In this document: positions 3,657-4,124 of the stretch, piece after piece | How the letters are laid out: each line of letters starts with the position of its first letter | Position numbering within the stretch: the stretch's first letter is position 1 | Source of the DNA: a virus | Taxonomy: Duplodnaviria > Heunggongvirae > Uroviricota > Caudoviricetes | DNA: 4,407 nucleotides | IMG/VR virus record: IMGVR_UViG_2667527595_000022 | Coordinates: 1-4,407 of that record | Direction: 5' to 3' (one strand) | Notes under the pieces: model-generated | What the model was told of the DNA's origin: nothing | What the model saw: the letters and a program-made list of their open reading frames with translations, nothing else | The model's database searches: none | Position numbers and translations under genes: made by a program

Positions 3657-4124
3657 ATGAGCAGGAAACTCCACTATGGTTTATCGGTAGCCGTTCTGGC
3701 GCTGATTGCCACAGGTGCTTCTGCGCCTGAAATCCTCGACCAGTTTCTTGACGAAAAAGAAGGTAACCACACCACGGCATACCGTGATGGTGCGGGGATC
3801 TGGACCATCTGCCGTGGTGCCATCATGGTGGATGGCAAACCTGTCGTCCCGGGCATGAAGTTGTCGAAGGAAAAATGCGCTCAGGTTAATGCCATTGAAC
3901 GTGATAAGGCGCTGGCATGGGTGGAGAAAAACATCAAATTGCCACTGACTGAACCGCAGAAAGCGGGCATCGCGTCATTCTGTTTCGCCATCGCCATTGC
4001 TTCGGCGGCAGCGGTGGCCTCATCCAGAAGAGAAGCCGAAGCTATATCCAGCCCGGTCAAATCCAGCGTTACCTGCTGGAAGTTGAGTAGTGCTTCAAGG
4101 CGGCCCTGGGAGACTTCAGGTTGA
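3657..4124 (+). pseudogene. R: SAR endolysin (T4-lysozyme-like, GH24 muramidase), 3'-truncated; lysozyme homology ends at ~3983 and the rest of the ORF is antisense gcvP sequence
   Basis: SD GGGAGAG lies 8 nt upstream, and the start is 4 nt after the holin stop. The N-terminus has a Gly/Ala-rich signal-anchor-release segment (YGLSVAVLALIATGASAP) and the catalytic E-x8-D-x5-T triad (EGNHTTAYRDGAGIWT). Lysozyme-like sequence runs to ...QKAGIASFC (~codon 109, nt ~3983). From there the plus strand is the reverse complement of gcvP, so the 45-aa tail [13 protein letters not shown]... is not native. No Rz/Rz1 follow. Confidence 0.75.

Follow-up and report, generated by a model that had tools for sequence, protein, structure and literature searches.

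A convergent join between a truncated SAR endolysin gene and host gcvP on one draft Escherichia coli contig: a probable chimera

Introduction

The P21/933W lysis cassette of lambdoid phages combines a pinholin with a SAR endolysin and Rz/Rz1 (S21-R21-Rz/Rz1). Phage sequence of this kind may become joined to host genes by different routes. Aberrant prophage excision (lambda gal/bio type) joins phage DNA to host DNA beside att, and spontaneous microhomology deletions give joins without site-specific machinery. Cryptic lambdoid prophages of the Qin, Rac and DLP12 type have become fixed in lineages, and IS elements or att remnants usually mark their ends. Chimeric or misjoined contigs are a further source of such joins in short-read draft and metagenome assemblies, most commonly of the repeat-induced kind.

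Here we analyse a 4,407-nt stretch of DNA (the window), in which a prophage endolysin gene runs head-on into E. coli gcvP, the gene for the glycine-cleavage P-protein. Exact look-up of its partial GcvP fusion product identified the window as the complete record CDRQ01000216.1, one contig of the assembly GCA_000941195.1. This is a fragmented NCBI draft, and the lysozyme-gcvP join is a property of one 4.4-kb contig. Literature searches on the assembly accessions gave nothing relevant. We consider the join to be probably a chimeric contig (an assembly or library chimera) and not a real genomic feature, and describe below the two arms, the structure of the breakpoint and the evidence bearing on its origin.

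The prophage arm

The plus-strand features of the window, up to the breakpoint, are the following.

1 to 3983, plus strand: late-region segment of a 933W/P21-like lambdoid prophage, downstream of the Q antiterminator (matches to UPEC-245U and to draft contigs L004, L006 and L007)
735 to 2708, plus strand: carbohydrate esterase with DUF1737, SASA and DUF6645 domains, NanS-p-like (Pfam matches)
2850 to 3044, plus strand: DUF1378 protein (Pfam; annotation of a relative)
3070 to 3360 (annotated as 2956 to 3360), plus strand: DUF826 protein (Pfam; annotation of a relative)
3437 to 3652, plus strand: intact class II holin of the P21 S type, 71 aa (Pfam PF04971, E = 5e-35)
3657 to 3983, plus strand: 5' 327 nt of a SAR endolysin gene, codons 1 to 109 of 177 (PF00959; intact 177-aa relatives)

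In a megablast search of 5,426 complete E. coli genomes, the 3,983 nt of this arm match a prophage of strain UPEC-245U over their full length with 99.9% identity, and draft contigs L004, L006 and L007 agree with them without a mismatch. These three contigs run on from the identical 3,983 nt into an intact 177-aa lysozyme, while L005 and L009 carry the same sequence up to contig ends that lie before the lysozyme. In L007 the intact gene occupies positions 4984-5517. The intact endolysin is also present in L001. UPEC-245U, the nearest finished relative, has a complete 177-aa lysozyme gene with lysis (Rz-type), terminase, portal and tail genes downstream of it, and its prophage adjoins ynfE-F, ∼1.4 Mb from gcvP.

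The esterase (735-2708, plus strand) sits where Stx phages have stx and nanS-p, and it appears to be a NanS-p-type sialate O-acetylesterase of a non-Stx, 933W-like prophage. The exact 657-aa protein is present on nine NCBI contigs. Two copies of the STnc100 sRNA family (Rfam RF02076) lie between Q and the esterase gene, each ending in a terminator-like hairpin: a full-length match at window 294-503 (plus strand, 138 bits against a gathering score of 47), and a degenerate second copy upstream of it at 54-229 (plus strand, 30 bits). The window contains no tRNA genes.

The lysis genes agree with the P21/933W cassette in that a class II, P21-type holin directly adjoins the lysozyme gene upstream. 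The truncated product begins with MSRKLHYGLSVAVLALIATGASAPE..., an Ala/Gly-rich N-terminal helix that, judged from its sequence, would be membrane-releasable, followed by E-GNHTTAYR-D-GAGIW-T, which constitutes the Glu-x8-Asp-x5-Thr catalytic triad. Its lysozyme domain (Phage_lysozyme, PF00959, E = 1.3e-12) covers residues 33-118 and profile positions 2-84 of 125. The best solved homologue of the intact relative is the P21 SAR endolysin R21 (PDB 3HDE, E = 5e-19), with the triad aligned. Together with the adjoining holin, this bears out the SAR-endolysin label given to the gene in the preliminary description. The fragment retains the SAR helix and the E-D-T triad and has lost the C-terminal 68 residues; lysozyme homology stops at codon 109 of 177, short of a complete catalytic domain (∼165-177 aa). 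Unlike the P21/933W cassette and the UPEC-245U prophage, the window has no downstream Rz-type lysis genes, because the contig leaves the phage. The cassette is an ordinary one of the P21/933W pinholin and SAR-endolysin type, truncated in the window.

Sister assemblies of the identical prophage part from UPEC-245U ∼300 nt past the stop codon of the lysozyme gene. At their contig ends, L007 (5805-6035, minus strand) and L006 (7860-8051, minus strand) run into the C-terminal part of an IS3-family transposase. L004 (from ∼13,797, by sequence only) follows L006 and L007 for ∼30 nt into the IS3-family region and stops before the transposase coding sequence. In these assemblies the IS sits just past the region that is missing from the window.

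The gcvP arm

The remaining features comprise the host arm, the overlap between the two arms, and the read-through tail that each open reading frame acquires on crossing into the other gene.

3982 to 4407, minus strand: gcvP from its nt 487 down to nt 62, the contig ending inside the gene (B2/ST73-type allele)
3982 to 3983, no strand assigned: breakpoint, a 2-nt overlap (GT) common to both parents (three-way comparison)
3984 to 4124, plus strand: read-through tail of the endolysin frame, 46 codons of antisense gcvP and a stop (4122-4124), without homology of its own
3881 to 3981, minus strand: read-through tail of the gcvP frame, 32 full codons of antisense lysozyme and a stop (3881-3883)

The gcvP arm (426 nt) encodes residues 22-162 of GcvP (glycine dehydrogenase, aminomethyl-transferring), with two further bases from codon 21 and one from codon 163. 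Its reading frame, from 4405 down to ∼3982, matches Pfam PF02347 (E = 1e-65, profile positions 8-150 of 429). Of the full-length 957-aa GcvP with its PLP-binding C-terminal half, residues 22-162 alone are present. The arm is 99.8% identical at the nucleotide level to CFT073, Nissle 1917, 536 and other B2 strains (megablast), with one mismatch against CFT073 and eight against UPEC-245U; the host background of the isolate that gave the contig differs from that of UPEC-245U. The arm is ordinary E. coli gcvP, truncated in the window.

Related gcvP fragments were met in two other places. The phage record OR850901.1 (H61, 'Salmonella phage S.Kent 1-2-1', 5.8 kb, unannotated) matches the gcvP arm at 86% over its positions 500-716, and this stretch is host gcvP-like DNA. 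Three Logan-derived clusters of truncated GcvP (P0018, P0022 and P0023, at GcvP residue 168) are frameshifts at an A5 run (...AAACTGAAAAATGCC..., gcvP nt ∼500-508), and are probably homopolymer sequencing errors rather than real pseudogenes.

Structure of the breakpoint

The breakpoint was fixed by base-by-base, three-way comparison of the window with intact lysozyme and intact gcvP. Lysozyme can be followed to its nt 327 (window 3983), and gcvP begins at its nt 487 (window 3982); the sequence switches between ...CATTCTGT and TTCGCC..., the wider context being ...GCGTCATTCTGT followed by TTCGCCATCGCC.... Every base at the join is accounted for: the homology blocks have no filler between them and overlap by 2 nt, GT, which occurs in both parents. 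Chance would not produce two blocks of 99.8-100% identity that meet so exactly, to the nucleotide.

These comparisons agree with the preliminary description, made from the sequence of the window, in its account of the join. It had placed a convergent junction of two unrelated genes near 3983, and prophage homology indeed spans 1-3983 and minus-strand gcvP 3982-4407. As it had stated, the plus-strand protein tracks lysozyme to ...IASFC (codon 109 of 177) and then reads antisense gcvP, and the minus-strand protein tracks GcvP to ...AMAMAK (residue 162 of 957) and then reads antisense lysozyme, the junction codon 3982-3984 adding one residue to the tail of the gcvP frame. An alignment to both parents, of the kind that it had proposed for the breakpoint and for microhomology, placed the switch at 3982-3983. 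It had further described the join as lacking an IS, an att site and Rz/Rz1, and no transposase ORF, att repeat or Rz/Rz1 was found in the window. A repeat scan around the join likewise revealed no target-site duplication and no terminal or flanking repeats.

An insertion inside gcvP was among the explanations first offered. Site-specific integration, or IS or transposon insertion, of the prophage or another mobile element into gcvP is rejected as having hardly any likelihood. Beyond the fact that gcvP is interrupted, nothing speaks for it. The two sequences meet midway through the endolysin gene, ∼23 kb downstream of the integrase end in the intact relative and not at a phage end; the homology blocks overlap by 2 nt, without att-like or terminal repeats, target-site duplication or transposase; and the site in gcvP is unoccupied in all 5,426 complete genomes. 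An attL/attR integration junction is discarded on the same grounds (mid-lysozyme position, no flanking repeats, integrase ∼23 kb upstream in the relative), as is an IS- or transposon-mediated rearrangement (nothing between the homology blocks, no transposase ORF).

Folding of the sequence gives no significant sign that a hairpin or inverted repeat promoted the join: the chimeric sequence has z = -1.5, with 17 of 200 shuffles folding equally well, and the native gcvP and lysozyme sites do not fold better than their shuffles. Two explanations at the assembly level were also considered and dropped. The first is a misjoin through a shared k-mer: the parents have just 2 nt in common, and identity to other prophage lysozymes across the site does not exceed ∼90%. 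With this excluded, the join must have been bridged by an actual molecule or read. The second is that lysozyme nt 327 marks a repeat or a mosaic boundary, which would end the contig: other prophage lysozymes align straight across this position.

Occurrence of the join and of its parents

The join is absent from the 5,426 complete E. coli genomes, none of which covers more than 57% of a query spanning it (megablast). A 40-mer across the join had no match in the GTDB species representatives, nor did a 28-mer in the JGI metagenomes and IMG/VR. INPHARED phages have the two parts separately: the lysozyme part or, in a single Salmonella record, a part resembling gcvP. The 155-aa endolysin fusion ORF gave no record on exact look-up, and the 174-aa partial GcvP fusion is found in CDRQ01000216.1 alone and is absent from the clustered protein collection. 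A homology search with the GcvP fusion yielded no second assembly with the same tail. This search is uninformative for Logan: the exact esterase is also recorded from NCBI assemblies only, so the runs appear not to be indexed, and silence there carries no weight. A 400-nt probe centred on gcvP nt 487 found exactly one full-length, uninterrupted match per genome in 5,426 of 5,426 complete genomes.

Origin of the join

Taken together, the join is known from one deposited contig, without recombination machinery or a repeat, and its parents are intact wherever else they were examined. Of the three explanations in the preliminary description, insertion into gcvP falls on the mid-lysozyme position and the lack of att or IS, and chimera is favoured over a rearrangement scar by the uniqueness of the join and the 426-nt arm. 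The case for a chimera draws on the fact that the 4.4-kb window is a whole contig, on the 426-nt arm ending in a single-copy gene, on the unique join and on the intact lysozymes of the sister assemblies. Its strongest clue is geometry: after just 426 nt of gcvP, a single-copy core gene, the contig breaks off at nt 62. Had a clonal deletion or inversion occurred, the assembly would be expected to continue through gcvH, gcvT and ubiI as far as the next repeat. It is improbable that the contig would break within 426 nt by chance. A chimeric fragment or over-extension naturally leads to a short spur such as this arm.

We infer an in vitro or in silico origin. On this view the end of a prophage contig would have acquired a short stretch of gcvP from the same isolate (nt 62-487, roughly the length of one library fragment), through a chimeric library molecule or read, or through a faulty extension or gap-closing step. 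Endolysin and gcvP would then probably both be intact in the cell. The window resembles known chimeric or misjoined short-read draft and metagenome contigs in its unique join, its small contig and an arm of about library-fragment length, in parents that are intact in all finished genomes, and in the analogous low-coverage chimeras at the same gcvP site (see below). It differs in that its join has no shared k-mer or repeat, and so is not of the commonest, repeat-induced kind. Three considerations count against a chimera: some molecule or read must have bridged the two genes, a de Bruijn assembler normally prefers a well-covered true lysozyme continuation to a 426-nt spur, and real illegitimate recombination just as typically leaves 2 nt of microhomology.

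The alternative is a private illegitimate-recombination scar, a deletion, inversion or translocation that joined lysozyme nt 327 to gcvP nt 487, which we regard as a possible but somewhat unlikely origin. The clean join with 2 nt of microhomology is as RecA-independent joining predicts, the flanks are of high quality (0 mismatches to L004, L006 and L007, and 1 to CFT073 gcvP), a k-mer misjoin is excluded, and the assembler took the join and not the intact lysozyme, as though it had no native sequence to follow. However, a simple clonal rearrangement does not predict a contig that stops 426 nt into single-copy gcvP, gcvP is broken at this site in 0 of 5,426 finished genomes, and the join is missing from every collection searched (complete E. 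coli, GTDB representatives, JGI metagenomes and IMG/VR). With the prophage at ynfE-F in UPEC-245U, ∼1.4 Mb off, a deletion is plausible only if the prophage is elsewhere in this strain, and megabase inversions via microhomology are rare.

Comparison with described rearrangements leads to the same difficulties. As in aberrant excision and spontaneous microhomology deletions, internal phage sequence is joined to a host gene with 2 nt of microhomology and no site-specific machinery. Aberrant excision joins phage to the host DNA beside att, whereas the UPEC-245U prophage lies ∼1.4 Mb from gcvP and the window contig does not run on into host flank. If the join is real, the prophage would resemble the cryptic lambdoid prophages of Qin, Rac and DLP12 type in being locked in, with the endolysin C-lobe and late genes lost. 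Those prophages are lineage-wide and usually carry IS or att remnants at their bounds, whereas this join is on a single draft contig, and the identical prophage, unlike decayed cryptic ones, reads without damage through the lysozyme gene in those three sister assemblies whose contigs extend so far.

An intermediate reading is that the molecule is real without being the only state of the chromosome, either as a 426-bp gcvP filler captured in the prophage, or as a subclonal phage-host hybrid from spontaneous induction. It accounts for the short gcvP arm and for the contig stop (a two-copy repeat, or a repeat coming next), and in L006 and L007 (with its first ∼30 nt also in L004) an IS3-family element does follow the lysozyme at a distance of ∼300 nt. 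It is nonetheless improbable. The window ends before the far side of the arm and gives no support for a second junction, E. coli seldom acquires filler templated by distant loci, and subclonal hybrids should be too rare to assemble. A technical chimera is the most likely reading.

Other breaks at the same site in gcvP

Among the GcvP-fusion matches listed, chimeric contigs from unrelated sources exit gcvP within nt 480-494, with differing partners.

L011 (2148), Logan, SRR2002518: exits gcvP at nt 490 into spoT/rpoZ (by-eye reading of the contig tail for spoT and the join)
L012 (1780), ENA metagenome: exits gcvP at nt 494 into a putative TonB-dependent receptor gene (by eye)
L013 (1925), NCBI metagenome: exits gcvP at nt 494 into staggered duplications of the gcv locus itself
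L014 (658), SPAdes node with 1.6x coverage: exits gcvP at nt 488 into AT-rich sequence of unknown identity
L015 (633), SPAdes node with 1.4x coverage: exits gcvP at nt 480 into a foreign gcvP, joined at the conserved AEAMAM motif

The sample is a handful of contigs from a length-limited list of matches, and in the next ∼140 GcvP residues, among the same matches, there are two chimeric breaks only. None of the 5,426 finished E. coli genomes has a break at gcvP nt 480-494. The site (gcvP nt ∼480-495, equivalent to window 3974-3989; ...GCGATGGCGAAACGCGTCAG...) holds an ACGCGT palindrome and a GCG-AAA-CGC mini-hairpin. A MluI/AflIII restriction and fill-in signature at the site was considered and set aside: it fits one contig, L011, by eye, and from contig to contig the breakpoints vary by up to 14 nt.

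These observations suggest a weakness at the recurrent site that is technical and not biological in nature. The clustering may be technical, or may be an ascertainment effect of the short, length-limited match list. That gcvP nt ∼480-495 is a genuine fragile site, which joins illegitimately to unrelated loci and of which the window is one real example, we consider very improbable; if it were true, one event would have disabled both the prophage endolysin and the host glycine-cleavage P-protein in the isolate.

Implications

Since the join is more likely a chimera, the loss of the prophage right end and of glycine cleavage in this isolate, which the preliminary description had raised as consequences of a real join, is unproven. 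If the join is an artefact, the contig is no evidence for prophage decay or gcvP loss, and calls of gene fusions and pseudogenes from small draft contigs need read-level checks. Neither reading is new: the join is either a recombination scar with prophage decay or otherwise a chimeric contig, and the one aspect of wider note is that chimeric breakpoints seem to cluster at a single gcvP site. A real join would be a rearrangement private to one isolate, in which a lambdoid prophage is locked in, having no endolysin and no late genes, and glycine cleavage is abolished through loss of the P-protein. This would be an event of a known kind, a microhomology-mediated illegitimate recombination scar with prophage decay, and of modest interest.
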